In this document: in pieces, positions 100 to 48,237 of the stretch
Position numbering within the stretch: position 1 is the stretch's first letter
How the letters are laid out: each line of letters begins with the position of its first letter
IMG/VR virus record: IMGVR_UViG_3300045988_061461
Reading direction: 5' to 3' (one strand)
Length of the DNA stretch: 53,833 bases
Source of the DNA: a virus
Made by a program: the position numbers and the translations under genes
The notes under the pieces: generated by a model
Seen by the model: the letters and a program-made list of their open reading frames with translations, nothing else
Told to the model about the DNA's origin: nothing
The model's database searches: none

Positions 100-125
100 T
101 CATAAAAGACGGTGAAATTTTCGCG
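100..125 (-). promoter_or_regulatory. CGCGAAAA-N10-TATTATGAG class promoter (P1) driving the junction-spanning ORF and the early block
   Basis: Minus strand reads CGCGAAAATTTCACCGTCTTTTATGA, followed by the SD and the ATG at 82. Confidence 0.55.
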
Positions 126-126
126 A

Positions 127-349
127 AATAAAAAGAAAAGAGAAATCCATGATGGCTATTATAGCCGATAACACCCTCATAGCCCTTTCGGTCCTACACT
201 AATCTAAAATTAGCTTCTTCTGATTACTCATACTGCTATGATATAAGTTAGTCTTCTAGGATTTCACATACCTTACGATATGTTCCGGCATTCAATTATT
301 CCGTTCATCCATCATGTTTTCAGTTAGGATCTTGATGTCCACCTAACTC
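127..349 (-). ncRNA. candidate non-coding transcript (about 215 nt) downstream of P2
   Basis: No SD or ORF after the promoter. Several local hairpins (GUUAGG..CCUAAC, ACAUA..UAUGU, CUAAU..AUUAG, GGCUAU..AUAGCC). Ends in a U-rich tract that abuts P1. Confidence 0.35.
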
Positions 350-355
350 TTTCTC

Positions 356-381
356 TCATAATAGTAACTGTAATTTTCGCG
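356..381 (-). promoter_or_regulatory. CGCGAAAA-N10-TATTATGAG class promoter (P2)
   Basis: Minus strand reads CGCGAAAATTACAGTTACTATTATGA. Part of a 37-nt exact repeat (348-384 equals 482-518). Confidence 0.55.
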
Positions 382-384
382 AGG

Positions 385-483: not shown

Positions 484-489
484 TTTCTC

Positions 490-515
490 TCATAATAGTA
501 ACTGTAATTTTCGCG
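490..515 (-). promoter_or_regulatory. CGCGAAAA-N10-TATTATGAG class promoter (P3)
   Basis: Identical to P2. Lies directly 3' of the sigma-factor stop codon. Confidence 0.55.
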
Positions 516-524
516 AGGTAGCTA

Positions 525-1022
525 TTAAATATATTTCTCAAATTTCGGTTTGATTTCGTTCAACAGAATACGACTAATCAGAGATTGCGAAATACCAAGT
601 ATTCTTCCAATTTCTTTCTGATTATATCTGTTTATACGTAAGTATACGATTTTCTTCTCCTTCAAGCTAAGAGAATTCCAGAATCCGTCCCAATCAATAT
701 AATCTATATCTTCCATTCCAACGATGGTGTCACCAAGCGAAACATCGTCCGTATTTTTTAGAATCTCGTCAATACTTCTTGGAGGAATATCAAGATGGCG
801 ACGTTTTGCATTCTGAATTCTAAGATGATGTAAGATTTCATTTTTAATGCATAAACAAGCGTACGTAGAGAATTTAGCAGTATGCAAATCGTATCTTTTG
901 CAAGCTTTCCATAATCCGATAGCCCCAATTTGTCTTATGTCTTCATCGAAATAATACATAGGAAAACGCGTTTTCAGTACCTGATAAATTAGATTTTTAT
1001 TCTCGATAAATAATTCTTCCAT
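525..1022 (-). CDS. phage-encoded sigma-70 family sigma factor (regions 2 and 4 only)
   Basis: Region 2-like IGAIGLWKACKRYD...FSTYACLCIKNEILHHLR. Region 4 HTH NQKEIGRILGISQSLISRIL. SD GGGGAGGA upstream. Confidence 0.85.
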   Translation of the reverse strand: MEELFIENKNLIYQVLKTRFPMYYFDEDIRQIGAIGLWKACKRYDLHTAKFSTYACLCIKNEILHHLRIQNAKRRHLDIPPRSIDEILKNTDDVSLGDTIVGMEDIDYIDWDGFWNSLSLKEKKIVYLRINRYNQKEIGRILGISQSLISRILLNEIKPKFEKYI

Positions 1023-1259: not shown

Positions 1260-1274
1260 TTTAACATCCTCCTT

Positions 1275-1300
1275 TCATATTAGAGAATGTTTTCGACGCG
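1275..1300 (-). promoter_or_regulatory. variant CGCG...TAATATGA promoter (P4) upstream of the 66-aa ORF and the sigma gene
   Basis: Minus strand reads CGCGTCGAAAACATTCTCTAATATGA, with the same spacing as the consensus. Confidence 0.45.
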
Positions 1301-2849: not shown

Positions 2850-3199
2850 TTAATAACCTTCTTTCTGTGATAAGATTCTACTGAATTGTATCGATTGCGT
2901 TTGCAGACTTCTTTAAAGATCGCTGGACCCGAGAGTGTTGTATACATAAGAATGTCGTCCCCATAAAAGAAACGTTTTAATGAATTGAACTGGTCCAGAT
3001 AGCGTTTACGAGCATCAACATCATCAGTAGAATTTAGATTCTTGATTACTTTGTCGAGATCCTGAACAGCTTGTAGTATGACCGCAGTTCCAAGCTCAGT
3101 CCAAGGAGTGATAGGTGTTTTGTGATTTTCGTGAGCGCGAATCTTATCAGAGTTAAGAGTTTTTAGTGGTCTGGCCATTTGTTTTATTCCTTTCTTCAT
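2846..3199 (-). CDS. hypothetical protein (117 aa; alternative start at MARPLK)
   Basis: ORF in the gene chain. Confidence 0.6.
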   Translation of the reverse strand: MKKGIKQMARPLKTLNSDKIRAHENHKTPITPWTELGTAVILQAVQDLDKVIKNLNSTDDVDARKRYLDQFNSLKRFFYGDDILMYTTLSGPAIFKEVCKRNRYNSVESYHRKKVIK

Positions 3200-3422
3200 A
3201 TGTAGGTCCGAAAATACAACTCGTTGGTATAGTCCATTCCATTACTTTTCCGCATCGAATACATTTGTTTTTATAATGATATAGACCAGTTTCTTCCCAG
3301 CAATTCAAATATCGATCATTGAATCGATGTCCGCCTAGAATTTTGCATAATATCGGGTGCAAGTTTGTATCCTTTCTCAAGATCGTCCATAAACGCTCTC
3401 GCATTGAAATCTTTCTTGTCAT
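3153..3422 (-). CDS. questionable small protein (89 aa, C..C zinc-ribbon-like)
   Basis: Fills the 116-nt gap between the helicase and the next gene, but overlaps both neighbours (107 and 47 nt). Confidence 0.3.
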   Translation of the reverse strand: MTRKISMRERLWTILRKDTNLHPILCKILGGHRFNDRYLNCWEETGLYHYKNKCIRCGKVMEWTIPTSCIFGPTYEERNKTNGQTTKNS

Positions 3423-4593
3423 TTAGACATTTACGTATACGAATATCAATAGGACTTTTAGATTGTAGATAATAGTAGTAAAGATCCTTGTATGGAGTGT
3501 TCATTCGATCAATACGTCCAGCGGCTTGAGTCATTATTTTGTATGAATGATTCAGCGAATAGAATATAATAGTATCTGTTCGTATACAGTTCCATCCTTC
3601 TGCGCCTGCATTATATTGAACTAAATATACCCATTTATCTCCACTTGGAACCTCCTGATGTTTATGTCCATTCCATTCAGCAACAACAAAATCTTCTCCG
3701 TAGTATAGATTTCTAAGAATATCAAGTTCGTAGTCGAAATTATAGAAAAGTATGATTCTAGGATGATCCTCGACTAATTCTAATAATTTAAGAATTCTAG
3801 ATTCGTCCTTATTCACGACCTTTCTCAATGCGATTCCTATCTCGGAAGCTGTCTTGAATGGTTCTCCTGTTTCGGGATTCATCTTTGTTTTGATTATGTT
3901 CCAAAATTCACGTTTGTCATAATCGACATAAATATCATAGCGATGATAGCGAACGTCTCGTTGGTTCTTCATTTGAATCAGTATATTCTTTCTAAGTCTT
4001 AGAAGTCGTCCAGTATTTATATACCTATCTATTATTGGATAAGGCTGTTTCCCGTATCGCAACACAATATGTTCTCGATAGAATTCGGATCTATTTTTAT
4101 AAAATCCGTTTGCAATAAACACCGGAATATAATCTTTCCAAGAATCTCCTGGAGTTGCTGTCAACAGAATCCAACGATTTTTCTTGGTTATACTGATAAA
4201 CGATTTTACCCAAACTCCAGAACCAACAACTCTTTGCTCGTCAAATATAAAGAATGCATCACGAATGTCCGTGTACTTCTTGATATTATTCCAGGAGTCT
4301 ATAACTACTGTATTTCCATACATATTCTCATTTGTAGACAACATGAACGGAATCATTTCTTCTTCCCATTCGTGTGTATCTCTTTTGAGAGCAGTCGTAA
4401 TAATGTATAGATCGCACGGCGCTCTAGGAAGTGGTTTATAGTTTTTAGTGTTCAATTCTCCGCCCATCAGCTTATAATAATATGCTAGCGAAGTTCTACT
4501 CTTTCCGCTTCCTACACTTCCGCATAGAATACATCCATTTTTCATTTTGTCAATAGCTTCAAGCTGATAATCAGCTAAAATAATACCTGCCAT
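3316..4593 (-). CDS. SF2 (DEAD/SNF2-like) helicase
   Basis: Motif I GSVGSGKS, motif II FDEQR, motif III LLTATPG, motif VI QAAGRIDR. Confidence 0.85.
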   Translation of the reverse strand: MAGIILADYQLEAIDKMKNGCILCGSVGSGKSRTSLAYYYKLMGGELNTKNYKPLPRAPCDLYIITTALKRDTHEWEEEMIPFMLSTNENMYGNTVVIDSWNNIKKYTDIRDAFFIFDEQRVVGSGVWVKSFISITKKNRWILLTATPGDSWKDYIPVFIANGFYKNRSEFYREHIVLRYGKQPYPIIDRYINTGRLLRLRKNILIQMKNQRDVRYHRYDIYVDYDKREFWNIIKTKMNPETGEPFKTASEIGIALRKVVNKDESRILKLLELVEDHPRIILFYNFDYELDILRNLYYGEDFVVAEWNGHKHQEVPSGDKWVYLVQYNAGAEGWNCIRTDTIIFYSLNHSYKIMTQAAGRIDRMNTPYKDLYYYYLQSKSPIDIRIRKCLNDKKDFNARAFMDDLEKGYKLAPDIMQNSRRTSIQ

Positions 4594-4645
4594 AACACCT
4601 CAAAAGATTAAAAGGATCAGGAAATGAATCCCAATCCTTTTTCAA

Positions 4646-4771
4646 TCAGCATAGATTTAATAATAACCAAAATAGTACAATGCATCCAACCATACAAATA
4701 CCGTCTTTAATCAGATCAGTGATTAATTTAGTCTTCTCAACGGATGGATCTTGAATAGTCTTTTTAGCCAT
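4646..4771 (-). CDS. 41-aa membrane peptide with its own promoter, not in the track
   Basis: MAKKTIQDPSVEKTKLITDLIKDGICMVGCIVLFWLLLNLC. SD GAAGGAGG follows promoter P5. Confidence 0.5.
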   Translation of the reverse strand: MAKKTIQDPSVEKTKLITDLIKDGICMVGCIVLFWLLLNLC

Positions 4772-4794
4772 ATTATGAAACCTCCTTCATGATC

Positions 4795-4820
4795 TCATAA
4801 TACAAGATGTTTTTTTCGCG
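4795..4820 (-). promoter_or_regulatory. CGCGAAAA-N10-TATTATGAG class promoter (P5)
   Basis: Minus strand reads CGCGAAAAAAACATCTTGTATTATGA. Confidence 0.6.
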
Positions 4821-4914
4821 ATAAAACCCGGGGAGTGATTTACATCATACAGCAGGATACCTCCAATCATGAGTTATAGTTGCTTCAATTTTGCTTCTCC
4901 CCGGATTATAGGGC

Positions 4915-4971
4915 GTTCAGAGCAGGAATCGAACCTGCAAATATTAAGCGTTGCCATTTCGCCATCTGAAC
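4915..4971 (-). ncRNA. tRNA-like element 1: acceptor stem, D-arm and T-arm, but no anticodon arm (57 nt)
   Basis: Minus strand GTTCAGA-TG-GCG(AAATGGCAA)CGC-TTAATATTT-GCAGG(TTCGATT)CCTGC-TCTGAAC. Perfect 7-bp acceptor and canonical T-loop. Confidence 0.4.
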
Positions 4972-5231
4972 AAATGACGATCCTTAATATTCCGTAATTT
5001 CTTTTCTGCCATGCGTCTCTTGGTTGGATTTATGTTTCATATCCCTAAATTATTTACGCAAATATAAAGGATCGTTGACTAATAGTTTTCAATCGGCTCG
5101 CCTATCGATTTGGACCAGATATATTTTTTAAAATGTTTATATGATTTTTTGCTTCTATCTAATATGATGTAATGTATCCGCTTCGATTAGGGTCATGGCG
5201 CAAATGTCAACTATTAAATCCGAATAGAAGA

Positions 5232-5280
5232 AGGGTCTCTAGGACTCGAACCTCGTAAGTACACCAAGCAGTAAGACCCC
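5232..5280 (-). ncRNA. tRNA-like element 2: acceptor stem, mini D-arm and T-arm, but no anticodon arm (49 nt)
   Basis: Minus strand GGGGTCT-TAC(TGCTTGGT)GTA-CTTA-CGAGG(TTCGAGT)CCTAG-AGACCCT. One G.A mismatch in the T stem and G.U at 1:72. Confidence 0.35.
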
Positions 5281-5304
5281 ATAAGAGGGGACAAAGCCCC
5301 TCAA
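5279..5304 (-). terminator. hairpin after the 108-aa ORF
   Basis: Minus strand GAGGGG-CUUUGU-CCCCUC then UUAU (weak U tract). Confidence 0.45.
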
Positions 5305-5307
5305 ATA

Positions 5308-5634: not shown

Positions 5635-5658
5635 ATTTGTCTCCTTTCAAAATATCAA

Positions 5659-10600: not shown

Positions 10601-11259
10601 TACGAGTCATAGCCTCCAGGCATCTTAATCACGTCACTAAACTTTCTGAAATCCTGTGTGATCTCATAATCGCACATCAATTCATCGTTACGTACGTGAA
10701 CAGTGTTGGTCTCATATTCCCCGAAATGATTCTTATAGTCACTTCCGACATAGTGTTCTTCGTCATCGACGACGTTGTCAAAGTCATCAGCAAGAACGCC
10801 ATCTGCATAATATATCAATGCAACCAGACTATAATCCATTTCCTCCCCAAGTTCTTCAGGAGTTATGATATAAGGCTTTGTTACATCATGACCGGGTTTC
10901 TCTTCATCTGGATGTTCATTGTATATCTGTCTTAGCTCTTCGTTCTCCTTTCTATCTTGAAGAATTTTAGGAGTCACTTCTTTTTCTTCGTTCGTAGACT
11001 CCTTGGAAGATTTCCAATATTTATCAGGAGATTGTTCAAGCTTATGCTTATAATAATCCATCAATTCGGGTTTGTTTTTATCGAGATAAGCTTTTACTTC
11101 ATTCTCGATATGATCAGGATTACTAATCTTGCGAGTTTTCCCCCAATCTTCCTTCAATTGTTCGATTTCATCTTCGTGAATCTTCTTTGTGATAAAGAAA
11201 GTCGCAGCGGCCCCAGTTAAGAGGCCGGCCACGAAACCCAATACTACTTTATAGTTCAT
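10600..11259 (-). CDS. N-terminally membrane-anchored acidic protein (219 aa)
   Basis: TM helix VVLGFVAGLLTGAAATFFI, then a charged region. Confidence 0.65.
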   Translation of the reverse strand: MNYKVVLGFVAGLLTGAAATFFITKKIHEDEIEQLKEDWGKTRKISNPDHIENEVKAYLDKNKPELMDYYKHKLEQSPDKYWKSSKESTNEEKEVTPKILQDRKENEELRQIYNEHPDEEKPGHDVTKPYIITPEELGEEMDYSLVALIYYADGVLADDFDNVVDDEEHYVGSDYKNHFGEYETNTVHVRNDELMCDYEITQDFRKFSDVIKMPGGYDS

Positions 11260-12233
11260 TATGCAAACCTCCGATCAGCTCTAGGAACTGAATTTCCGAG
11301 CATATCAATGATGACCCCATCAGGATCAAGATCCAACCAAATACAGGGCTCATATCCGTTCACGAAAGCTCTCTTTGTCTTGTCGGACAGATCAAAGATG
11401 TGAAAATCAATCACATTCTTCTTCGTCTTGTCGTCCGGATTGTAAAGCCAACCAACAACCTGGCCCCAAGATGTGCTAGGAAGACCAAGCATGTCGAGAA
11501 CTTCGTTGTAGAAGACATGTCCTTTTGTCCGAAGTCTAAGATTTAGCTGATCCTGAACGCCGCAAAGATACATTTTGCTAAATTCGGGATTATCGTCCCA
11601 TCCAGCACAACCAGGCTCATAGCAAATTGTATAAGCACCATGAGTAGTTGCTTCAGAAATCACCTTCTCAATCTTTTTGTTCTTACCAGTCTCAGGATCA
11701 GTGACTGTTTCTTTTATTTTCTCTGTTTTGACACCGTATGCAATATCATTGGCCGCTTCAGAACCGTATTTCTCCTCTACACGATCCTTGTATTCGTTGA
11801 ATGCTTTATTTACCAAAGCATACGCGGTGCTAATCGCAGCTGTTCTATTCTTTTGAATCGTGTGAGCACCAAGAATACTCGTGATAGAAAGAGCTGCCAA
11901 TCCGACAGAAGGACCATAAAGTTTGACCATGTTCAAAGCAGTTTTAGTATATACTTTGATCAAACCCTTCTGATCTTCTTTCTTAATATCAATACCGGTT
12001 TCCTCAGCATCTTTATTCATCGCTACAATCTCGTTCCGATGCTCTTCCAAACGTTCCGTATGATCTTCGATAACATCGTTCAATTTTGTAGTTGCTTTAC
12101 AGGCCATAACGGTGCTCGTTACGATACCTGTTACACCAGCACCAATCAATATTTCGGGTGCATATTTCTTCAGATAAAGACCTGCTCTACCAAGAACTTT
12201 CTTTGCTACATTTATAATGATTTCAGTATTCAT
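11259..12233 (-). CDS. N-anchored protein, paralog A of a three-member family (324 aa)
   Basis: Shares PEIL..GV.G..T.TV.A.KAT, N(R)..AA..TAY and GL(P/R/D)..G...GW blocks with 13647..14414 and 14813..15514. Confidence 0.7.
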   Translation of the reverse strand: MNTEIIINVAKKVLGRAGLYLKKYAPEILIGAGVTGIVTSTVMACKATTKLNDVIEDHTERLEEHRNEIVAMNKDAEETGIDIKKEDQKGLIKVYTKTALNMVKLYGPSVGLAALSITSILGAHTIQKNRTAAISTAYALVNKAFNEYKDRVEEKYGSEAANDIAYGVKTEKIKETVTDPETGKNKKIEKVISEATTHGAYTICYEPGCAGWDDNPEFSKMYLCGVQDQLNLRLRTKGHVFYNEVLDMLGLPSTSWGQVVGWLYNPDDKTKKNVIDFHIFDLSDKTKRAFVNGYEPCIWLDLDPDGVIIDMLGNSVPRADRRFA

Positions 12234-12254
12234 TAGTTATTTCCTTTCTAAATA

Positions 12255-12881
12255 TCAATCAAGTACAATCATTCTGGGCATACGAATGTAATAACCGCCT
12301 TCCAAAGCGTTTCGTACAACCTTTGCATTACGGATGTCTTTCCATCCATATTTATTGTCCGTAAAATCTCCTGTTACACCAGCCATTTCTTCCAAATCGG
12401 CAAAACTAACAGAACCATAAGTGCTTATGATTTCGTCCATTTTGATCAAAGTGTCTTCAGCATCAGCTCTTGACGGAAATATAAGATCAGACGGACCTTT
12501 CTTAACGTTCAACGTCTGCTCTTTCGCCTCTTCAGATGCCCGTTTCGGAGGCTGATTCAAGGAAGAACTTGCAAAATATCCATTATACTGGGTTCCTCCA
12601 TATGTGATGTTGGATCCAAAAGCGCTAGGACCTTTCTTTCCATATGTTTGTCCCTTGTACAATAGCATATACAAAGCTTCCTGAACCGCGTCAAAGAAGG
12701 TCCGTTTAAGATAAGGGATAATCACTTCTTTTCCGACGTGCTCTTTCATTTTCTGAAAATCTTCCGGATTTATCAACTTTGACAATTTGCTGTCATTGTT
12801 CGTACGTACAATCGCCGAAGTTTTCGCTACCTGACCAACTTTTTTTGCAGACAAATTCGGTGTTTGTTTATTTTCTTCCAT
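12255..12881 (-). CDS. hypothetical protein (208 aa)
   Basis: ORF with an SD. Confidence 0.65.
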   Translation of the reverse strand: MEENKQTPNLSAKKVGQVAKTSAIVRTNNDSKLSKLINPEDFQKMKEHVGKEVIIPYLKRTFFDAVQEALYMLLYKGQTYGKKGPSAFGSNITYGGTQYNGYFASSSLNQPPKRASEEAKEQTLNVKKGPSDLIFPSRADAEDTLIKMDEIISTYGSVSFADLEEMAGVTGDFTDNKYGWKDIRNAKVVRNALEGGYYIRMPRMIVLD

Positions 12882-13321: not shown

Positions 13322-13576
13322 TTAGTTCTCAATAGTCACGTCAGCAGTTTCAGCGGCTTTACGTTCTGCTTCTGCATCTTTGACAGCTTTCTTTAACCGA
13401 CGAGCGTCCTGAACCTTGTTCTTGACAAAAGCACCAAACTTGTACGCGCCATATGCGGCGGCACCAAGCAATGCTGCACCAAGACCAATGATTGCAATGT
13501 TCTTGCCAGTTGAAGATTCGTTCTCAACCTCAGCAGTAGTGTCAACGTTTACCATTTCCATGTTCTCGTTTTCCAT
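13322..13576 (-). CDS. small membrane protein (84 aa)
   Basis: TM helix IAIIGLGAALLGAAAYGAY. Own promoter P6. Confidence 0.65.
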   Translation of the reverse strand: MENENMEMVNVDTTAEVENESSTGKNIAIIGLGAALLGAAAYGAYKFGAFVKNKVQDARRLKKAVKDAEAERKAAETADVTIEN

Positions 13577-13615
13577 TTTAATAACTCCTTTGTATTTTAG
13601 TTTGAGGTGTATCCC

Positions 13616-13641
13616 TCATATAATAAACTGTTTTTTTCGCG
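13616..13641 (-). promoter_or_regulatory. CGCGAAAA-N10-TTATATGAG class promoter (P6)
   Basis: Minus strand reads CGCGAAAAAAACAGTTTATTATATGA. Confidence 0.6.
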
Positions 13642-13646
13642 AGGTC

Positions 13647-14414
13647 TTAGTCCATATAATTGGCTTTAGGAGGAACCCTATACTCAAGAACTAAGCACGG
13701 TTTCCCATTCGTAGCCACTTGAGCGCTATAGTAAATATCAATGATACCTTTGTCTATGTTCCATCCTACTTCATCACCAACTCCGGTGGGTCTAAGACCA
13801 AGTTCATAATAGAAATCGTTCAAAGATACGTATGTTTCGTATCGCATACGTCTTGCAAGTTCATTCACGGCCTTATTTATCTCATCCGGATCCTTCGTGA
13901 AATATCTATCCGCCATATAATCGTAACACAACGTCTCGTCTTTACCAAGAACGATTACCTGCTGTTGCTCTACGGGATGATTTTCGACTCGTTCTTTAGC
14001 AATTTCGTTACGAATATCATTGGAACGTTCCTCTCCAAGGGCCTTTTCTGCTTTCTCCGAGAATTCTCGCATAGCAGTCTCGGAGAGTGTATAAGCAGTT
14101 GCCAATGCCGCATTACGTCTATTGTTAGTCGCACTAGCTCCAATAATACAGGCGGCGGATGCTGTCACAGCAGTTGCTGTCGGAAGATAACATTTCCAAC
14201 AAGTTTTGATTGTTTCACCAACCGTCAGTTTATCGACGTTAAGTTCTTCTTTCTTTTCTTCGATCTTCTTCAATGCTTCCGGAGTTGCTTTTACTGCAGT
14301 TACAGTAGCAGTTGCCATACCAACAACTCCCAACGCTGTCAATATTTCTGGGGTGTGCTTCCTCAAAAATATCAATGAAGTTTTGATTGCTGATTGGATC
14401 CATTTAGTGTTCAT
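13647..14414 (-). CDS. N-anchored protein, paralog B (255 aa)
   Basis: See paralog A. N-terminal TM PEILTALGVVGMATATVTAV. Confidence 0.7.
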   Translation of the reverse strand: MNTKWIQSAIKTSLIFLRKHTPEILTALGVVGMATATVTAVKATPEALKKIEEKKEELNVDKLTVGETIKTCWKCYLPTATAVTASAACIIGASATNNRRNAALATAYTLSETAMREFSEKAEKALGEERSNDIRNEIAKERVENHPVEQQQVIVLGKDETLCYDYMADRYFTKDPDEINKAVNELARRMRYETYVSLNDFYYELGLRPTGVGDEVGWNIDKGIIDIYYSAQVATNGKPCLVLEYRVPPKANYMD

Positions 14415-14592: not shown

Positions 14593-14626
14593 TTTTAAAA
14601 AGATAAGAGGACCCGTTAGAGTCCCC
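14593..14626 (-). terminator. intrinsic terminator with an embedded stop codon
   Basis: Minus strand GGGGAC-UCUAACGG-GUCCUC then UUAUCUUUUU. Confidence 0.55.
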
Positions 14627-14765
14627 TATCTTTTAATTTCTGTTCTATTTTCTCGTCAATTTCATCAGAATGTTGTTTTTCCTTCACCACGTCAGCTAAT
14701 ACCGAAGCTAACAATCCGATCGCGCTCAACGCAATTCCAATTACTTTAAGCATTTTATTACTCAT
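14616..14765 (-). CDS. 49-aa single-TM peptide, not in the track
   Basis: MSNKMLKVIGIALSAIGLLASVLADVVKEKQHSDEIDEKIEQKLKDRGL. SD AAAGGAGG after promoter P7. Confidence 0.5.
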   Translation of the reverse strand: MSNKMLKVIGIALSAIGLLASVLADVVKEKQHSDEIDEKIEQKLKDRGL

Positions 14766-14783
14766 AGAACCTCCTTTATGTTC

Positions 14784-14809
14784 TCATAATACAAGCTGAA
14801 AAATTCGCG
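14784..14809 (-). promoter_or_regulatory. CGCGAA-N-TATTATGAG class promoter (P7)
   Basis: Minus strand reads CGCGAATTTTTCAGCTTGTATTATGA. Confidence 0.6.
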
Positions 14810-14812: not shown

Positions 14813-15514
14813 CTAGATTTGAACTAATGGAGCATTTGCAAACTCTATTATTTCGCATTCCATGTCATCATCAATTTTTGTAAGAGTGTGACGAAAGTCT
14901 ACCCAGCACATCTGAACCTCAGCGTAAGCCATAAATGACCAGCCAGTAACAGATCCTTCTTCTATCGGATCTAATCCAAGAAAACCGAGCCAATCATTGA
15001 CGCTTGCTTCTCCAAATAGCGCCAGAACTCTGTTCAGATCGTATTCTGCTTGTATGACAGCTTCTCTGGTTGATGTGAAATATTGATGCGAAAAATCGTC
15101 ATAGAATAGAACTTCGTTGTCTTGAATATCAATATCGTCCGTATACTTTTTAGAAACGATGTTCTTTAACGGAGTATCTTCTCCAAGAATTTTTCGTATC
15201 TCGTCTTTATAGTCTCCGAGAGATGCTGTCGCCATGGAAGCAGCTGCAGCCAATGCACTTGCTTTTCCGGCAAATTCCCTTGCAGATAATCCTGCAGATG
15301 CAACACATCCAAGAGCAGCAACAGCCGTTGGTATATATTCTTTTCCTACTACTTTTAACACCTCTTTTTTGGTGAGAGGTTCTCCTTTGTTCTCTTCCGC
15401 TTCTTTTTTCAACTGTTCTGCTTTTGGAGTAGCTTTAATGGCTGTGTAAATCGAGCATACTAGACCAACAGCAACTCCGATAAAACCAAGAACAGCCGTT
15501 CGATTAAATTTCAT
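14813..15514 (-). CDS. N-anchored protein, paralog C (233 aa)
   Basis: See paralog A. TM VLGFIGVAVGLVCSIYTAI. Confidence 0.7.
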   Translation of the reverse strand: MKFNRTAVLGFIGVAVGLVCSIYTAIKATPKAEQLKKEAEENKGEPLTKKEVLKVVGKEYIPTAVAALGCVASAGLSAREFAGKASALAAAASMATASLGDYKDEIRKILGEDTPLKNIVSKKYTDDIDIQDNEVLFYDDFSHQYFTSTREAVIQAEYDLNRVLALFGEASVNDWLGFLGLDPIEEGSVTGWSFMAYAEVQMCWVDFRHTLTKIDDDMECEIIEFANAPLVQI

Positions 15515-15523: not shown

Positions 15524-15559
15524 CTTTCAAAAAATGTAGAAGTCCCTGTTAGGACTCCT
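15524..15559 (-). terminator. intrinsic terminator with an embedded stop codon
   Basis: Minus strand GGAGUCC-UAACAG-GGACUUC then UACAUUUUUUG. Confidence 0.6.
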
Positions 15560-15728
15560 TTGTGACGAACTTTTTCAGTTTATCACGAGCATCGTTAAAT
15601 TTCTCAACAGCTTTGTTCCTTATCTCTGGAATAGACAGAGCTGTCAACGCCAGTGTCATCACTGGTATTGCAACCTGAGTCAACCAGAGTCTACGTTCAC
15701 GTGAAGTTTCGATTTGTCGATAAGTCAT
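15549..15728 (-). CDS. 59-aa membrane peptide, not in the track
   Basis: MTYRQIETSRERRLWLTQVAIPVMTLALTALSIPEIRNKAVEKFNDARDKLKKFVTKES. SD AAAGGAGG after promoter P8. Confidence 0.5.
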   Translation of the reverse strand: MTYRQIETSRERRLWLTQVAIPVMTLALTALSIPEIRNKAVEKFNDARDKLKKFVTKES

Positions 15729-15749
15729 GATAGAACCTCCTTTATGTTC

Positions 15750-15775
15750 TCATAATATAAGCTGAAAATTTCGCG
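15750..15775 (-). promoter_or_regulatory. CGCGAAA-N-TATTATGAG class promoter (P8)
   Basis: Minus strand reads CGCGAAATTTTCAGCTTATATTATGA. Confidence 0.6.
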
Positions 15776-15777: not shown

Positions 15778-15804
15778 TATCAAAAGGAAGAGCCTTTGCG
15801 GCTC
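15778..15804 (-). terminator. intrinsic terminator (part of a duplicated 40-nt boundary module)
   Basis: Minus strand GAGCC-GCAAA-GGCUC then UUCCUUUUGAUAUU. Confidence 0.6.
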
Positions 15805-15976
15805 AATCCTTCTTATGTTTCTTAATATTTTTGGAAATAATCCATGCAATAAACAATACACATACGATCACGTCTCCGAATAATACTATTCCGATCGCCC
15901 CTCCTCCTACGAGTACAACGATTGCGGCAATAGTAGCAGCGATAGCCATGAAGATAAGTAAAATAGTCAACAGCAT
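15803..15976 (-). CDS. 57-aa two-TM peptide, not in the track
   Basis: MLLTILLIFMAIAATIAAIVVLVGGGAIGIVLFGDVIVCVLFIAWIISKNIKKHKKD. SD AAAGGAGGAAA after promoter P9. Confidence 0.55.
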   Translation of the reverse strand: MLLTILLIFMAIAATIAAIVVLVGGGAIGIVLFGDVIVCVLFIAWIISKNIKKHKKD

Positions 15977-15999
15977 ATAATGTTTCCTCCTTTATTATT

Positions 16000-16025
16000 T
16001 CATATAGGAGAATGTTTTTTTCGCG
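16000..16025 (-). promoter_or_regulatory. CGCGAAAA-N10-CTATATGA class promoter (P9)
   Basis: Minus strand reads CGCGAAAAAAACATTCTCCTATATGA. Confidence 0.6.
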
Positions 16026-16027: not shown

Positions 16028-16054
16028 TATCAAAAGGAAGAGCCTTTGCGGCTC
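16028..16054 (-). terminator. intrinsic terminator (second copy of the 40-nt boundary module)
   Basis: 16021-16060 is identical to 15771-15810. Confidence 0.6.
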
Positions 16055-16289
16055 AATCCTCTTCATAAAGTTTGGTAACACAATTCCACCAAAATTTTAC
16101 TCCCATTGCGACTTCGTAAAATGCTTGTGAAAAATACTCTTTGACTCCAATCTCGAATTTTGACGCAAATATAGTAGTTGGAAATTCAATGATTCCCGAA
16201 ACTATTACCATTAAAATTCGTACTGGAAGAAAAATCGTAGACAACACGACACCGACAGTCTTACAAACAGTTTCTAAAAATTTGGTCAT
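16053..16289 (-). CDS. small membrane protein (78 aa)
   Basis: Two hydrophobic helices. Own promoter P10 and terminator. Confidence 0.65.
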   Translation of the reverse strand: MTKFLETVCKTVGVVLSTIFLPVRILMVIVSGIIEFPTTIFASKFEIGVKEYFSQAFYEVAMGVKFWWNCVTKLYEED

Positions 16290-16311
16290 AACAAAATCCT
16301 CCTTTATGATC

Positions 16312-16336
16312 TCATATAGGAGAATGTTTTTTCGCG
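16312..16336 (-). promoter_or_regulatory. CGCGAAAA-N9-CTATATGAG class promoter (P10)
   Basis: Minus strand reads CGCGAAAAAACATTCTCCTATATGA. Confidence 0.55.
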
Positions 16337-16380: not shown

Positions 16381-16716
16381 CTACTTAGATGGTTTCATGT
16401 ACTTGATAACATTCTTGAAAGTCGGAGATGATAACGATCCTGTTTCTTCGAAATTAAATCCCAGTATCGTTAATCCGGTAAATATCAATGCCGGAACAGC
16501 AACTTCGATACAAGTTTTTATGATACCCATTCTTCGTTCTTTTTTCTTTGAATCTTTTTCCGATTCAATTTCTTTTTCACGAAGTTTGAGCTCATATAAC
16601 TTTACGAAGCTCGACTGTGCCTGATCTCTGCTTTCCGAACCAACAAACTGTGCGTTCATTTCCGAACCAACAGATATCAATTCTTTCTCCAGAATTTCAG
16701 AAGATTGTTCAAACAT
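16381..16716 (-). CDS. tail-anchored (C-terminal TM) coiled-coil protein (111 aa)
   Basis: Charged N-terminus and C-terminal helix GIIKTCIEVAVPALIFTGLTILGF. Own promoter P11. Confidence 0.65.
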   Translation of the reverse strand: MFEQSSEILEKELISVGSEMNAQFVGSESRDQAQSSFVKLYELKLREKEIESEKDSKKKERRMGIIKTCIEVAVPALIFTGLTILGFNFEETGSLSSPTFKNVIKYMKPSK

Positions 16717-16742
16717 ACTAATTCTCCTTTCAGTATAGTATT

Positions 16743-16768
16743 CCTTAATAGACTATGTTTTTTTCGCG
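16743..16768 (-). promoter_or_regulatory. CGCGAAAA-N10-TATTAAGG variant promoter (P11)
   Basis: Minus strand reads CGCGAAAAAAACATAGTCTATTAAGG. Confidence 0.5.
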
Positions 16769-17015: not shown

Positions 17016-17037
17016 TATAGAATCCTCCCTTATGTTC

Positions 17038-43821: not shown

Positions 43822-43842
43822 GAGGTTTCCTCCGTGTAATTA

Positions 43843-43962
43843 CCAGACTGAGTAGACTTTAGGGGTCTTTTCGAAAGGATAGGACGGCTTGTTTACTGAA
43901 AGGAGAACTTTGGAAGAGAACAAAGGAGAATTTCAAAGACCCCTAAAGTCTACTCAGTCTGG
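43843..43962. repeat. 28-bp perfect inverted repeat with a 64-nt loop, directly upstream of the endolysin SD
   Basis: 43843-43870 ccagactgagtagactttaggggtcttt is the exact reverse complement of 43935-43962. Confidence 0.9.
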
Positions 43963-44190
43963 GGAATATCAAACAACTCTCCAAAAATCCCTCTGCGGGG
44001 TTTTTTCGAAGAGGCCGGCGACGACTAGGGGGTGGGTTATCCGCGACCCCCTCCCTACCCTCCTTTTATATTGGTATTGGTGGGTGTGGAGAGTTCATTC
44101 AAACAATTACAATTAATTTCTAAGAACAAACACAAAGTCTTTTCATTTAAATGTTTTTCTTTCCTGATGAAATTCATTGAAAGAATTGCT

Positions 44191-44529
44191 TTAATCAACA
44201 AGCTTTGACAATTCTTTCTCAACTACGATCTCTTCATTCGGGTTCAAAGGAAGAGAAGTTTCATCGTCAAGATCTTTAGTAACCTTCAAATAAATGTTTT
44301 GAAAGTCATACTTAATAATTTCGTCAATTGCTTCTTCAATTGCTTCTTGGTATTCAATGTCAGTAAATGAATTTGAAGTCTTCACTATTCGACCTAGAAA
44401 GGCAGAAGAATGGTAACCTTTTAATTCATCATACATATACCAGTGATAGAAATCCTCAAAAGGATCATAAGGATTATCCTTCGTAGTAATCATCGATTGA
44501 CGCATCAATTTCACTCTCCTTTCTTTCAT
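44191..44529 (-). CDS. hypothetical protein (start probably ATG 44505, MRQSMITT...)
   Basis: AAAGGAGAG lies before the ATG at 44505. Overlaps the 3' end of the RNAP gene. Confidence 0.55.
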   Translation of the reverse strand: MKERRVKLMRQSMITTKDNPYDPFEDFYHWYMYDELKGYHSSAFLGRIVKTSNSFTDIEYQEAIEEAIDEIIKYDFQNIYLKVTKDLDDETSLPLNPNEEIVVEKELSKLVD

Positions 44530-47335
44530 AATCTCGATCTTTCAAATACTTTCCAACAGTTGCCGAAGAAACGCCCAACGCTTTTGCGATTTCGATTAAA
44601 GTATAGTTATTTGAAGCGGCCATAGTTTTCATCTTATTAATCTGCCAAGGACGTAGTTGTTTTCGTTCTTTCGGCATGGATAGATCTTTTAATCGATCGG
44701 TGTCAGTATATTTCAGAATGCTATTGAGCTTACTGGCTGATATAGCTCCTTTCTGGATAGCTTCCCACTCCCTATCGCTTATGGTTATGGGAACACGTTT
44801 AGCACCGACATGCAGTCTCGCTTTAGTCAACTCCCTCTGACGTATCTTACGGAGTTGCTTTTTGTCATCTGCCAGATCCGGATTGTCGTTTATGAGTGAC
44901 TGAACTTTTGCGGCTGTTGTTACTTGCGCCATTCGTTCTCTAGGGTCATTCAACTTAGCCTTTGCCAGCTGGGCCATTAATGAATCGTATTCCTTCTGGT
45001 ATGTTGACTTGGCAACGGGATCATATTTCATGTCCTTGGTATGGACTATTTCAAGCCGGGCCTGGTTCGCTAGGGATTTCATCTTATTAGCATAGTCGGC
45101 ATAAGCTTGTTCTTGAGGGGTATTGTATTCCGAGATAAGTGTTCTTGCATCAGAGGTCTCCAGCATCTTATTACTACGCTGAGTTCTCTTCTTAAACTTT
45201 CCTGTTGGTATGGTTTTCTTTCCTGTTACAGGATCTTTCTTCTTTACCTCGTAATACAGATCATCAGCCGTCTTCCAAATAAGTTCTCCTGTTTCAGGAT
45301 TAATAGTGGGCGAACCTTGACGCTTGTCGACTGTTTGCTGAGATTTAGCTCTCGACAGCAACGTTGCCGCAGCACCGTAACTACCATCAGGTTTCTTCTG
45401 CCACTTTCGTTTCAATCCATCAATGTCGTTCTCATATTCAGATCTCTTGTAATCGAGTTTGTGTTTTTCTGCATCAATTACAACCATACTATGTTTAACA
45501 GCTCTTGCGATTTCATCTTCACCAGCACCTTCAATAGTCATGTCAATAATCAGGTTTGTAATTACGCCCATTTCTTTTTGAGTTCCTGCTTTCGTCATTA
45601 CTTTCATACCTGGACGAGCAGCATATTCAACGTGCGGGTCGAAACCTTTAAGCTGTTCTAGAGGTTTGCTGTAAGAAATGTTAATACCATTCTTTCCAGT
45701 TGGAATGACCAAAGCTGTATCGCCGTCGTAATCGGCGCCAGATAGCTGTTGAGCAACCTTTGAATTAATACCAACTCCATCTGGAGAATCAGCACCAATA
45801 AGTTTTGCCCCTTCCCTATTCTTATTATTCACCTTAAGTTTTGGTATCTCGAAAATTCCTCCATGAGGAAACCGAACGAGACAAACTTCTTCTCCATCTT
45901 CATAGCCAGGAGCATATATTTCGTTGTCCTTTAATGATGGAACAGGAAGTAACACATGGTATTTTTGTCTGGGAAGGGCGGCTGCCTGAAGATGATAGGA
46001 AGCAGAGTCACAGTCTTTAGCAAAAGAATCTAATAGATACTTTCTCAAAGTCGGATTACTTACAGACATAATATCGTCGAACTCTGATTGTTTATCGGCT
46101 TTTGCCAAATTAAGCTGTCTGTTTATAAGTTTAATGTTCTGCTTTCCAAGAAATTGTGAAGGAAGCTTCGCTGAATAATCAGCCCAATCTCCTTCTTCTC
46201 TCATCTTATTAATCGGAGAAAGAACTTTTTCGCCCTTTTCATTTTCATAATAAGACTGTCCGTTTGGTTTAATGTATGCTCCAAATGGATTGTCCGGATC
46301 GTCATTCTTTATTGGTTTGAGAACAGTGTTGTCTTTTGGCCCAAGCATAGGTGTTCCTTTAGATTTGTTGGTATTAAACCGTATGTCTACGCCATCAGGA
46401 AGATCATCCGAATAGACCGCCATTCCCTTTAAGTAATGCGTTCCGTCAACAAGTATTCGAACCTGTGCATAGTTAGCGTTTCCGAGAGAGAGATCTGGAA
46501 CTCCTCGACGAAGTTCAATAACACCGTCACGATCAACACCGCCGTCTTCAGCATATTTGATCTGAATGCGCTTCGAATCTACACTACTCGGATACTTATA
46601 TGCATGAAAGGTTTCACCATCATCATTAGTCGCATAATCAGTAATCGAATGAATCTTGCTGTAATCATAGCTGTCTTTATAAGGAGTTCCTTTAGGACAA
46701 ATGACCTGAAGATTCGTTTTCTGATCTGGATTGGTTGCCTGATTTACAGAAGAATTGTAGACCGGATATCCTTCTCTTTCAAGAATATAAAGTGCCTGCT
46801 GAAGTTTCTCAGGACTTAAATTTCCAAGTTCTCGTTCAACACCAGTACCAACCATAATAATACCCTTTTCTTCAATCTGCTTTCTTATGAAGTCAGCGGT
46901 ATTATGAGCGGACATCATTCTACGTTCAGCGTCTTCATCTAAAAGACCTCGAACGGTTGACTCGTTCTTTAATCCAAGTCTCTTCGCAATCTCTCCATTA
47001 GAAAGACCTTCAGCTTTAAGTTTCTTAACATCAGCAACTGTTCGCATTCTTTCTTCTGCTTGTTCGACTGCAAGAATCTTTCTGTAAACACCAGAATTCA
47101 ACCCAAGAGATGCGGCGATAGCATTCTCTCCAGTAAGAACTTTTCCGTTCTCAACGAAAGTAATGTTTTCTGCTCGCAACTGTTTGACTCGTGCAAGAAA
47201 ATCGCCAGAATGCTGATAAGGATTTTCTCCTGAGCCCCAAGGATATCTTCCTGAATGTCGCTTAGTTCCATAATGAACGACATCGTCATCTACGAAAATA
47301 TCATAGTAAGAGACGAAATCCTCTTCATAGTTCAT
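44474..47335 (-). CDS. single-chain two-barrel (DPBB) RNA polymerase, YonO-like, with N- and C-terminal HTH domains
   Basis: Beta-like GTHYLKGMAVYSDDLPDGVDIRFNTN (aa 298-322). Beta-prime-like LVRFPHGGIFEIP...GADYDGDTALV (aa 486-543). HTHs LSNGEIAKRLGLKNESTVRGLL and YTLIEIAKALGVSSATVGKYL. Confidence 0.7.
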   Translation of the reverse strand: MNYEEDFVSYYDIFVDDDVVHYGTKRHSGRYPWGSGENPYQHSGDFLARVKQLRAENITFVENGKVLTGENAIAASLGLNSGVYRKILAVEQAEERMRTVADVKKLKAEGLSNGEIAKRLGLKNESTVRGLLDEDAERRMMSAHNTADFIRKQIEEKGIIMVGTGVERELGNLSPEKLQQALYILEREGYPVYNSSVNQATNPDQKTNLQVICPKGTPYKDSYDYSKIHSITDYATNDDGETFHAYKYPSSVDSKRIQIKYAEDGGVDRDGVIELRRGVPDLSLGNANYAQVRILVDGTHYLKGMAVYSDDLPDGVDIRFNTNKSKGTPMLGPKDNTVLKPIKNDDPDNPFGAYIKPNGQSYYENEKGEKVLSPINKMREEGDWADYSAKLPSQFLGKQNIKLINRQLNLAKADKQSEFDDIMSVSNPTLRKYLLDSFAKDCDSASYHLQAAALPRQKYHVLLPVPSLKDNEIYAPGYEDGEEVCLVRFPHGGIFEIPKLKVNNKNREGAKLIGADSPDGVGINSKVAQQLSGADYDGDTALVIPTGKNGINISYSKPLEQLKGFDPHVEYAARPGMKVMTKAGTQKEMGVITNLIIDMTIEGAGEDEIARAVKHSMVVIDAEKHKLDYKRSEYENDIDGLKRKWQKKPDGSYGAAATLLSRAKSQQTVDKRQGSPTINPETGELIWKTADDLYYEVKKKDPVTGKKTIPTGKFKKRTQRSNKMLETSDARTLISEYNTPQEQAYADYANKMKSLANQARLEIVHTKDMKYDPVAKSTYQKEYDSLMAQLAKAKLNDPRERMAQVTTAAKVQSLINDNPDLADDKKQLRKIRQRELTKARLHVGAKRVPITISDREWEAIQKGAISASKLNSILKYTDTDRLKDLSMPKERKQLRPWQINKMKTMAASNNYTLIEIAKALGVSSATVGKYLKDRDYERKESEIDASIDDYYEG

Positions 47336-47338
47336 AGC

Positions 47339-47896
47339 TTATTCCTCCTGTTTCTTTACTTTGTCAACGATCTTGTCGCTTAAAACAATTCTATTTATAA
47401 TATCGATAATTATTTCCGGTTCTGGATTAGCAATTAGTATATCATCATTTTGATAGATTCTCAATTCGTGTTTGATCGCCGTCGGTTTAAAATCATATTC
47501 CAAACAGAAAAGAGCATCATAAATCATAAGCTGCTCTATATGAGCTGGAATACTTCCTGTCTTTAGATCGTGGATTCTTAGAATCCCATCGTTAAAAGAA
47601 ATAGTATCGGCGGTTCCAAAACAATTGTCCGAATAATATAATATTTGTTCCGGCGTCATTCGAAAGCCAATAGCATCGTTAACATACATATTAAGAGTCT
47701 TTCTAATTCTCGGAAGCTTCTGTTTCAAACGAATACATGTTGCTGCAAATTCGTGAATCTCGGTTCCTCTTTGAGCAGCCAAGAAATTCTTGTAAGCCTC
47801 AGCAACTTTCTCATCAGAATAATTGATCCAATGATACTTACTTGCTCCCAAGAATGCATGCATTCCTTCAAGATTCGAATGCCTGTTGAATTTCAT
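47339..47896 (-). CDS. PD-(D/E)XK family nuclease
   Basis: AAGGAGGA lies before the ATG at 47896. Motifs GTEIHEF, ADTISF and RIHDLKTG. Confidence 0.6.
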   Translation of the reverse strand: MKFNRHSNLEGMHAFLGASKYHWINYSDEKVAEAYKNFLAAQRGTEIHEFAATCIRLKQKLPRIRKTLNMYVNDAIGFRMTPEQILYYSDNCFGTADTISFNDGILRIHDLKTGSIPAHIEQLMIYDALFCLEYDFKPTAIKHELRIYQNDDILIANPEPEIIIDIINRIVLSDKIVDKVKKQEE

Positions 47897-48158
47897 TAAG
47901 TACGTCCTCCTTGTTCTCTGGGTATATAAAAGATGCATAACTCATTTCGTTCATCGTTTTGACGTAATAGTCTTGATTCGGACGATGAGAGGCATTCTTA
48001 TTTTTCTTTCCTTCCAAGGCCGCCCATTTATTCTTATATAGAATCAAAAGATCTGGAACGCCTTGTCTTTCTGTCGGATCCAGATGAAAAACATAAGAGC
48101 CTGGAAATCGTTTTTCAATTTCTTTGATCAGGTTCGTTTTAAATTTGTTCTCCAACAT
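47868..48158 (-). CDS. VRR-NUC domain nuclease
   Basis: GVPDLLILYKNKWAALEGKK...RPNQ (D-E-K plus Q). Confidence 0.6.
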   Translation of the reverse strand: MLENKFKTNLIKEIEKRFPGSYVFHLDPTERQGVPDLLILYKNKWAALEGKKNKNASHRPNQDYYVKTMNEMSYASFIYPENKEDVLNEIQQAFES

Positions 48159-48210
48159 AATGAGACTCCTTAATAATAAAATTAATAGGAAAGGTCCTAT
48201 TCTACCCTCT

Positions 48211-48237
48211 CCTATAAAAGGGGATGTTTTTCTCGCG
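48211..48237 (-). promoter_or_regulatory. variant CGCGAGAA-N10-TTTTATAGG promoter (P13) for the nuclease-RNAP operon
   Basis: Minus strand reads CGCGAGAAAAACATCCCCTTTTATAGG. Confidence 0.4.

Follow-up and report, generated by a model that had tools for sequence, protein, structure and literature searches.

A recurrent 28-bp intergenic motif, probably a promoter for a phage-encoded single-chain polymerase, in phages of Actinobacteria and Firmicutes

How single-chain relatives of the cellular RNA polymerases locate their promoters is an open question. YonO, from the Bacillus prophage SPbeta, has been shown experimentally to be a single-chain RNA polymerase that transcribes only the SPbeta late operon, and its promoter and any need for accessory factors were stated as open questions (PMC5467207). 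For phage P23-45, promoter motifs came to light because they accompany the polymerase gene and are missing from relatives that do not have it (PMC10770324). Here we describe a motif that recurs 13 times in a gut phage, the IMG/VR virus record IMGVR_UViG_3300045988_061461, a stretch of 53,833 nucleotides (nt) that is referred to in its entirety as the window. We put the probability at about 0.6 that this motif is a compact promoter of ~28 bp read by the phage's own candidate RNA polymerase, a single chain of 953 amino acids (aa) with a DxDGD loop and helix-turn-helix (HTH) domains. The phage family concerned offers a testable answer to the question above, with many natural promoter copies in each genome and a polymerase that would carry fused DNA-binding domains.

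The 953-aa protein and YonO share several features. Each is a single polypeptide (840-950 aa) from a siphophage, and the catalytic loop D-x-DGD-x-AL-(I/V)-I falls at residue 535 of both, reading DNDGDKALII in YonO and DYDGDTALVI in the window. In both cases the gene lies upstream of structural genes, with a non-coding RNA beside the promoter (PMC5467207). The two differ in that YonO, judged by eye, appears to be without terminal HTH domains, and in that it has one late promoter whereas the window's family would have 10-15, mostly in the non-structural region. No similar motif was seen by eye upstream of yonK in SPbeta, where the published start coordinate was not placed on the record used. The polymerases gp96/gp64 of P23-45 and gp66 of the crAss-like phages are likewise single-chain two-barrel enzymes, virion-borne or encoded among pre-early genes. 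Their motifs, one AT-rich and one GC-rich, are unrelated to that of the window, and their start sites have been mapped whereas those of the window are predicted.

A co-oriented motif in non-coding DNA

Alignment of the 13 copies gave the consensus TCGCGAAAWWWWCA-N5-YWTWAT-GAGA, that is, T-CGCG-A(A/T)6-CA-N5-(T/C)(A/T)T(A/T)AT-GAGA, in which CGCG, CA and the TA at bases three and four of the hexamer are invariant. The register is fixed at 28 nt, except that the copy at 16312 has one A fewer and the copy at 1275 has TCG in place of AAA. TATG is present in 11 of the 13 copies and absent from only two. All copies lie on the minus strand, which is the coding strand for every gene of the window, and are as follows.

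98-125, minus strand: motif copy CGCGAAAATTTCACCGTCTTTTATGAAA, upstream of the open reading frame (ORF) that spans the circular junction of the contig
354-381, minus strand: motif copy CGCGAAAATTACAGTTACTATTATGAGA, preceding a non-coding stretch of ~230 nt (128-357) that ends in a T-tract
488-515, minus strand: motif copy identical to that at 354-381, preceding a non-coding stretch of ~108 nt (384-491) that ends in a T-tract
1273-1300, minus strand: motif copy CGCGTCGAAAACATTCTCTAATATGAAA, upstream of a 66-aa ORF (1059-1259) and then the sigma factor gene
4793-4820, minus strand: motif copy with the exact consensus, upstream of a 41-aa ORF and then a helicase gene (3316-4593)
13614-13641, minus strand: motif copy upstream of an 84-aa ORF (13322-13576)
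14782-14809, minus strand: motif copy upstream of a 49-aa ORF (14616-14765)
15748-15775, minus strand: motif copy right after a terminator hairpin, upstream of a 59-aa ORF (15549-15728)
15998-16025, minus strand: motif copy right after a terminator hairpin, upstream of a 57-aa ORF (15803-15976)
16310-16336, minus strand: motif copy one A short, right after a terminator, upstream of a 78-aa ORF (16053-16289)
16741-16768, minus strand: divergent motif copy, with AGGAA behind the hexamer CTATTA, located after a terminator and upstream of a 111-aa ORF (16381-16716)
17036-17063, minus strand: motif copy with the exact consensus at the end of the structural block, upstream of a 70-aa ORF (16803-17015)
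48210-48237, minus strand: motif copy CGCGAGAAAAACATCCCCTTTTATAGGA, upstream of the endonuclease-exonuclease-polymerase operon

The exact pattern CTCATWATA-N8-12-TTTTCGCG matched the window 3 times against 0.00 expected, TTTTCGCG by itself 10 times against 2.4 expected, and the 28-nt consensus with up to three mismatches 8 times, always on the minus strand, against 0.00 expected. A position weight matrix (PWM) scan and a calibrated, sequence-only covariance model regained all 13 copies (E 4e-8 to 1.6e-5) and revealed no 14th on either strand of the window. Because the matrix and the model were both trained on these same 13 sites, their recovery demonstrates the absence of a 14th copy and is not an independent measure of significance. 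Every copy lies wholly within the non-coding DNA, which makes up 6.7% of the window, a placement with a chance probability of ~6e-16. The distance from the end of the motif to the next start codon is 13-51 nt. An additional TTTTCGCG at 48426-48433 is missing the downstream half and sits within an origin-like repeat region described below.

These results bear on a sequence-only reading of the window that preceded this work. Its 13 sites were all present on the minus strand at coordinates within 1-2 nt of those proposed, and the enrichment that it called for was found, with 13 copies against 0 expected. Its observations that the block between 17.4 and 43.8 kb contains no copy and that nothing TTGACA-like stands upstream also held, since the structural block is free of copies and no conserved sequence occurs at the -35 distance. 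The statement that copies usually lie just downstream of a terminator is true of ~6 of the 13 (hairpin plus T-tract) and not of the rest. CGCG had been called otherwise rare; 53 occurrences were counted in the window, of which 13 are inside the motif. The core of that reading, a phage-specific promoter unlike those of sigma-A, gains support from the position of the copies, their strict co-orientation and their conservation in distant relatives.

Conservation across the phage family

A near-identity DNA search of the phage collection with the window gave no match, and relatives were found via protein similarity. The motif is a property of the whole phage family and not peculiar to the window phage: relatives whose polymerase-like protein is 40-58% identical to that of the window carry it, again co-oriented and intergenic. 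In gut IMG/VR loci with a 55-57% identical polymerase, a copy (GCGCGAAAAAWACATNCCCTTTTATGAAG) is found ~940 nt upstream of the polymerase gene, often with a second copy further upstream. The ~940-nt copy is the positional equivalent of the window copy at 48210-48237, which is conserved in position in essentially all relatives. Faecalibacterium phage FP_oengus (polymerase 48% identical, genome guanine plus cytosine (GC) content 49%) contains at least 13 copies of the form RCGCGAAAAAWWCA-N5-CTTTAT-GGAR, which precede small genes and the endonuclease-exonuclease-polymerase operon. At least nine copies of TCGCGTAAATTACA-N5-TATAAT-GAGA were found in Arthrobacter phage Circum (GC 45%, host 63%) and at least 10 of TCGCAGGGAATACA-CGTCC-TATAAT-GAGACCCC in Gordonia phage Tanis. 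In Lactococcus phage 1706 the motif takes the variant form TTTTACA-N5-TATAGT-AGAA, which lacks CGCG and occurs at least 12 times, and in MT835495 GCGCTTTAAAAACATACCCTTTTATGAGA stands upstream of the polymerase operon. Common to all variants are the A/T run, ACA, N5, a hexamer that starts with T or C and ends with T, and a purine-rich continuation; the hexamer ends in AT throughout the family, except for GT in phage 1706.

The covariance model, built from the window copies only, gave 75 matches in 861 kb of relatives, all 75 on the gene strand, and 0 matches in the SPbeta region scanned. A degenerate-motif scan of one genome per species (185,579 species) returned 77 loci against ~9 expected by chance, the latter being a rough estimate. 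These loci are mostly from gut Clostridia (Faecalibacterium, Gemmiger, Clostridium leptum, Lachnospiraceae and Oscillospiraceae). Within them the covariance model found 185 copies, with ~38 loci holding 2-11 copies that are always co-oriented, and homologues of window proteins lie within 4 kb in 37 of the 77.

The sister phage IMGVR_UViG_3300045988_070935 (L088), which is 94-97% identical to the window elsewhere, contains two promoter-plus-small-gene cassettes that are missing from the window (L088:12796 and L088:13276, against about 52.0-52.3 kb of the window). This gain and loss indicates that the motif-driven cassettes behave as exchangeable modules.

Homologues of the 953-aa protein were found in 250 phage records, including 95 from Arthrobacter, 55 from Gordonia, 54 from Streptomyces and 13 from Lactococcus, as well as FP_oengus and the gut 'Siphovirus contig89'. 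More than 8000 metagenomic protein clusters match the protein, one of them with 5951 members. A preprint (10.1101/842583) describes an Actinobacteria-Firmicutes phage 'supercluster' and singles out this protein as a putative polymerase (HHpred 95.7% to PF05183), with the DxDGD loop and HTH domains at both ends; promoters are not mentioned there. The window's family is that 'supercluster', which comprises Lactococcus 1706, FP_oengus and the Arthrobacter AM/AU, Gordonia DJ and Streptomyces BI clusters. Both this group of phages and the proposed polymerase are already in print. A promoter class for this single-chain two-barrel family is apparently undescribed, as no published description was found in the literature on YonO, two-barrel phage polymerases, phage 1706, Arthrobacter AM/AU, Microbacterium EL and Rhodococcus Pepy6, a search that did not cover Garneau 2008 and Summer 2011.

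Start site and reader of the motif

The position of the start site relative to the hexamer is indicated by two kinds of downstream feature. In eight independent loci, a tRNA-like gene called by ARAGORN starts 1-5 nt past the hexamer, and in three of these it begins exactly at the first base after it. All but the FP_oengus locus are motif-bearing loci in bacterial assemblies.

FP_oengus (L082), 2935-3006: tRNA-like gene
L096, 1205-1278: tRNA-like gene
L110, 200-274: tRNA-like gene
L123, 3392-3465: tRNA-like gene
L140, 6138-6212: tRNA-like gene
L147, 4931-5003: tRNA-like gene
L151, 3427-3499: tRNA-like gene
L163, 807-877: tRNA-like gene

The acceptor stem of these RNAs starts from the G next to the hexamer: a purine-rich 5' end (GGAGGAG..., GAGAGAC...) pairs with pyrimidines at the 3' end, which continues into a T-tract. 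ARAGORN labels them 'tRNA-???' with a two-base anticodon, equivalent to a six-base anticodon loop. The window itself has no tRNA genes, no tRNA-like gene of this kind and no Rfam families. The second feature is the Shine-Dalgarno (SD) sequence, which in four cases starts 1-2 nt past the hexamer with the start codon at +17 (window 1275, L088:12796, FP_oengus:2286 and 1706:26236); in the window copy at 1273-1300 the sequence is AAGGAGG and begins 2 nt past the hexamer. As a separate observation, a short tRNA-like fragment, GGGGTCTTACTGCTTGGTGTACTTACGAGGTTCGAGTCCTAGAGACCC, occurs in the window at ~5232-5280 on the minus strand, within the 714-nt gap 4594-5307. An acceptor-like stem can be made out in it, as can a T-arm containing GGTTCGAGTCC, whereas D and anticodon arms are lacking and ARAGORN did not call it.

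Taken together, the tRNA-like genes and SD positions point to a start at the purine right after the hexamer (the G of TATG), with the hexamer at -6 to -1. A start at this purine, usually G, is the simplest reading. In the sequence-only reading the hexamer was taken to resemble a -10 element, with transcription beginning ~7 nt further on. The flanking genes contradict this, since a start at that distance, the one expected of any sigma-70-family factor, would truncate the acceptor stems and the ribosome-binding sites. In the predicted layout CGCG would occupy -24 to -21, the A/T run -20 to -14, CA -13/-12, N5 -11 to -7, the hexamer YWTWAT -6 to -1 and the purine-rich GAGA +1 to +4. A hexamer so placed does not fit a sigma-70-type promoter. 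Moreover, TANNNT is absent from the FP_oengus copies (hexamer CTTTAT; CTTTATGG) and from the window copies with CTATATG (CTATATGAGA). A -35-like hexamer at 16-18 bp is not conserved in the window and is lacking in most copies. A TTGATA-like hexamer occurs in a few copies only, at a spacing of 18-20 bp, where the tail of a terminator supplies it, and nothing TTGATA-like is seen in the copies at 515, 13641, 17063 and 48237. Sigma-70-like promoter sites as a class are not enriched in the window (46 against 56 expected; 46 against 48 expected).

The motif has the form of a compact promoter, with one contiguous conserved block abutting the predicted start and many co-oriented intergenic copies. In this it resembles promoters of the T7/SP6 type, which also form one contiguous block of 23-28 bp ending at the start site (a predicted site in the present case), with an upstream part recognised as duplex, a TATA-like stretch at ~-6 to -1 and a purine-rich start, and which likewise occur as many co-oriented copies before gene cassettes and need no -35/-10 spacing. 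The T7 promoter reads ...CACTATA up to the start and GGGAGA from it, as compared with ...CTATAT and GAGA in the window, and the form in phage 1706, ...ACACTATAGTAGAA, resembles the SP6 and T7 promoters. The difference is that no T7-like (Pol I-fold) polymerase gene is present. The candidate enzyme would fall in the two-barrel class, which is unrelated, so that the likeness to T7/SP6 promoters would be one of design and not of family.

The late promoters of phiKZ (T-3 A T G+1) and AR9 (A-11 ACA-N6-TA/G+1) also have a key element that overlaps the start site, and the non-virion polymerases that read them are two-barrel enzymes acting without sigma (PMC7598289), as is proposed here. Many window copies fit AACA-N6-TA, as in AR9, and the TATG of 11 of the 13 copies, with G as the predicted start, recalls phiKZ. 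The enzymes of the jumbo phages are built from four or five subunits, and that of AR9 needs gp226 and uracil-containing DNA, whereas no split beta/beta-prime genes were seen here. The likeness also fails across the family, as Circum has TAATG and phage 1706 TAGTA, and the conserved upstream part of the motif is much longer.

The genes from which a reader might be drawn, together with the neighbours of the polymerase gene, are the following.

44474-47335, minus strand: single-chain polymerase-like gene, 953 aa, the proposed reader of the motif
47339-47938, minus strand: DUF2800/Cas4-like exonuclease gene, adjoining the polymerase gene
47868-48158, minus strand: VRR-Nuc-like endonuclease gene, between the motif copy at 48210-48237 and the polymerase gene
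525-1022, minus strand: sigma-70-family factor gene, 165 aa (Pfam cut-offs exceeded by Sigma70_r2, E 4.8e-11, and by Sigma70_r4, E 4.8e-6)

The sequence-only reading had named the sigma factor and the polymerase-like protein as alternative readers. Both genes are present, as judged from Pfam and sequence motifs; their equal likelihood is not upheld, as relatives without a sigma homologue carry the motif. Of the polymerase-like genes, that for the 953-aa protein alone accompanies the motif, and the two co-occur across related genomes, an argument that follows the logic applied to P23-45 (PMC10770324). The protein has SGADYDGDTALVI at residue 535, and SGAD(Y/F)DGDT is invariant both in 18 and in 6 aligned homologues (40-58% identity). 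Weak HTH matches were obtained near the N-terminus (~residues 98-131) and, of the sigma-region-4-like kind, near the C-terminus (~residues 898-933). The gene order endonuclease-exonuclease-polymerase is also found in FP_oengus, Circum and Tanis, and the two nuclease genes are predicted to be co-transcribed with the polymerase gene from the copy at 48210-48237.

Several points weigh against recognition of the motif by the 953-aa protein. Promoter activity and the identity of the reader are both deduced from sequence. The protein matches the Pfam family RdRP (PF05183) weakly, at E 0.0067, with a score of 15.6 bits that falls short of the required 23.8. Comparison with YonO by hhalign gave no match (probability 0.07%), and phmmer and profile searches against the sequences of solved structures matched HTH domains only. 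An AlphaFold model of the protein is of low confidence (predicted local distance difference test (pLDDT) 64), and a Foldseek search with that model gave no significant match, none at E<0.8; the matches that ranked highest without reaching significance were to the largest subunit of RNA polymerases, both cellular and viral. Nor does co-occurrence distinguish the polymerase from another conserved phage protein, since every relative that bears it shares many further genes. The primase-polymerase gene, for example, has the same distribution across phage genera, and the phage collection holds no close polymerase-less relative to act as a negative control. The copy before the polymerase's own operon, which implies positive feedback, means that the first polymerase molecules need another source. 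Finally, the actinophage hexamer is a perfect TATAAT that host sigma-A could in principle use, and the cassettes end in intrinsic terminators (hairpin plus T-tract), a signal best known for the host polymerase.

These last points are met by the main rival, in which the host sigma-A holoenzyme reads the motif, alone or with a phage activator bound at CGCG...ACA, on the model of MotA/AsiA at T4 middle promoters. Promoters with the motif would then be of early or middle type and would supply the phage polymerase, which in turn would transcribe only late genes. The bootstrapping problem of the polymerase operon disappears under this scheme, the TATAAT of Circum and Tanis and the intrinsic terminators are what it predicts, and YonO transcribes the late operon of SPbeta only (PMC5467207). 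Yet most copies are without a -35-like hexamer at 16-18 bp, FP_oengus and several window copies are without TANNNT, and sigma-70-like sites are not enriched. The tRNA-like genes and SDs 1-5 nt past the hexamer exclude a start ~7 nt downstream, and the ~28 bp kept across phages of two host phyla, including the ACA box and GAGA, go beyond what sigma-A needs. We therefore consider the host holoenzyme an unlikely reader, though the strongest competitor.

A far smaller chance is given to host core RNA polymerase directed by the phage sigma factor, with CGCGAAAA as a -35-like and TATTATGAG as a -10-like element. The sigma factor is genuine, with regions 2 and 4 present, the motif has two conserved blocks, and phage sigma cascades such as that of SPO1 gp28 and gp33/34 are well known. 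In those cascades, as in that of phiEco32 (gp36), a phage sigma-70-family gene is found together with non-sigma-A motifs before phage genes, as in the window. They differ from it in that the motif is kept in many relatives without this sigma factor and in that its geometry is unfit for sigma recognition: the blocks are separated by 13 bp and not 16-18, and a hexamer at -6 to -1 would be unusable by sigma region 2. FP_oengus, Circum, Tanis, phage 1706 and dozens of gut relatives carry the motif without a detectable sigma homologue, and the sigma factor was rejected as its reader on this ground. No sigma homologue was found by tblastn in 80 relatives, by phmmer among the ORFs of the examined parts of FP_oengus, Tanis, Circum, 1706 and MT835495, or in the motif-bearing phage genera of the phage collection, where the homologues come from Bacillus, Clostridium, Clostridioides and Enterocloster phages and unplaced faecal contigs; in IMG/VR one was found in one sister contig only. 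The sigma gene is itself the second gene behind the motif copy at 1273-1300, which makes it a target of the motif rather than its reader. It is unlikely to read the motif, looks like a lineage-specific accessory gene driven by it and may serve the late genes. The least probable account, if by little, is that the motif is no promoter, and marks instead either the site of a phage DNA-binding protein, like the 'stoperators' of Cluster A mycobacteriophages, or a leader element acting at the RNA level. Stoperator sites are reported to be asymmetric, co-oriented and intergenic (PMC9283540), as are the motif copies, and several HTH proteins are encoded in these phages. Terminators immediately precede about half of the copies, though, at places where no transcription is left to stop, and a constant distance separates the motif from the downstream RNA or SD. 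With the tRNA-like RNAs starting exactly behind the hexamer, the motif would lie outside the RNA, and conserved RNA pairing is impossible with N5 free to vary. The family, moreover, consists mostly of lytic phages without a repressor (PMC5513430, PMC7302621).

If the 953-aa protein is the reader, it would be a distant relative of the cellular two-barrel polymerases with a DxDGD catalytic loop. Its HTH domains may take part in promoter recognition. More speculatively, the two fused domains would bind the CGCG and ACA duplex boxes, whose centres are ~10 bp (one helical turn) apart, and the AT-rich hexamer would melt beside the start site. Covariation between HTH residues and promoter variants, sought by eye in a six-sequence alignment, gave nothing clear. 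A self-sufficient two-barrel polymerase whose own HTHs read CGCG/ACA and which starts at G, a natural 'polymerase with a built-in sigma', is a tentative extension in which we have less confidence than in the promoter-polymerase pairing itself. Were it true, the same promoter grammar would extend from Arthrobacter and Streptomyces phages to abundant phages of human-gut Clostridia, and the tRNA-like RNAs would receive their mature 5' end straight from initiation.

Besides the polymerase's own operon, the regulon of the 953-aa polymerase would take in replication genes, the sigma gene, two short non-coding stretches and the cassettes of small ORFs that follow the tail genes. The first polymerase might be supplied from a host promoter or by read-through; a sigma-70-like site, TTTAGA-18-TAGAAT, is present at 48601-48572 upstream of the operon, and such sites are no commoner than chance. 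A virion-packaged polymerase would be another, purely hypothetical option. The motif-free structural block lies directly downstream of the polymerase operon and could be transcribed via read-through or via the phage's extra sigma factor. In both non-coding stretches, 128-357 and 384-491, the 5' end GAGAGAAAGA can pair with the U-rich 3' end. Folding of the two was not significantly better than that of shuffled sequence (z -1.9 and -0.9), neither has an Rfam match, and the sister phage L088 is without both cassettes.

Such a promoter-polymerase pair would be of wider use. The family is very common and widespread in gut metagenomes, where the pair would aid annotation of the expression programmes of gut phages. 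Cultured members infecting Arthrobacter, Gordonia, Streptomyces, Lactococcus and Faecalibacterium supply natural variants of the promoter, and Gram-positive bacteria could gain an orthogonal expression system from the pair. A further possibility is that the pair accounts for a phage GC content that is 20-30% below that of the actinobacterial hosts.

Genome ends, repeats and strand-biased words

An identical 55-nt direct repeat at 1-55 and 53779-53833 of the window indicates that the phage genome is complete and closes into a circle of ~53.78 kb, all of its genes lying on one strand. In the non-coding region 48390-48660, a short way upstream of the promoter of the polymerase operon, TGCCCACTTTT is repeated at least six times, with one inverted pair among the copies, and there is also a (TA)n-rich tract; the region resembles an iteron-bearing replication origin. 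The words GCCCACTTTT and AAAAGTGGGC reappear at the corresponding position in gut relatives, in Circum and in phage 1706. Between this region and the promoter, and immediately upstream of the latter, are two 25-nt direct repeats in tandem, TTATAAGACTGTACG(A/G)ACGATTG (48250-48310, minus strand). At the other end of the polymerase operon, a 233-nt gap to the first gene of the structural block (43822-44054) contains the GC-rich GGAGGGGGTCGCGGATAACCCACCCCC and a 28-nt inverted repeat, CCAGACTGAGTAGACTTTAGGGGTCTTT ... AAAGACCCCTAAAGTCTACTCAGTCTGG, with arms ~75 nt apart. This gap may be a cos/packaging region, and the two ends of the Circum genome are at the equivalent place.

Three paralogous genes of the DUF6353 family, whose function is unknown, were found in the window (Pfam E 3e-76 to 8e-37).

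11259-12233, minus strand: DUF6353 gene
13647-14414, minus strand: DUF6353 gene
14813-15514, minus strand: DUF6353 gene

DUF6353 is also multi-copy in FP_oengus and is present in many of the motif-bearing loci of bacterial genomes.

The heptamer TGATATT is strongly polar in the window, with 66 occurrences on the coding strand and 1 on the other (e.g. 785-792, 5650-5657, 12250-12257 and 43964-43971), and TGATATTY occurs 43 times against 9.9 expected. Within genes, TGATATT was observed 61 times against 17.7 +/- 3.4 from synonymous-codon shuffling, and by the same shuffling its complement AATATCA is depleted (1 against 7.6 expected). About 80% of the in-gene copies read as xxT-GAT-ATT. The same polarity is seen in FP_oengus (L082; 39:2) and, as CATATTY, in Tanis (L089; 48:0), and is not clear in Circum and phage 1706. 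The heptamer is possibly a polar signal for replication or priming, or one read by the polymerase. TGATATT/GATATT as a second, host-type -10 element was set aside, as many copies abut or lie within the spacer between SD and start codon, or fall in coding sequence. A further word, ATTCAAAATGGA, was not seen in the window and recurs in the relatives L034, L040, L042, L065, L073, L074 and L086. In MT835495, TCAAAATGG occurs 11 times and AAAATGG has a strand bias of 30:0; words of the ATTCAAAATGGA type may represent a shared context around start codons.

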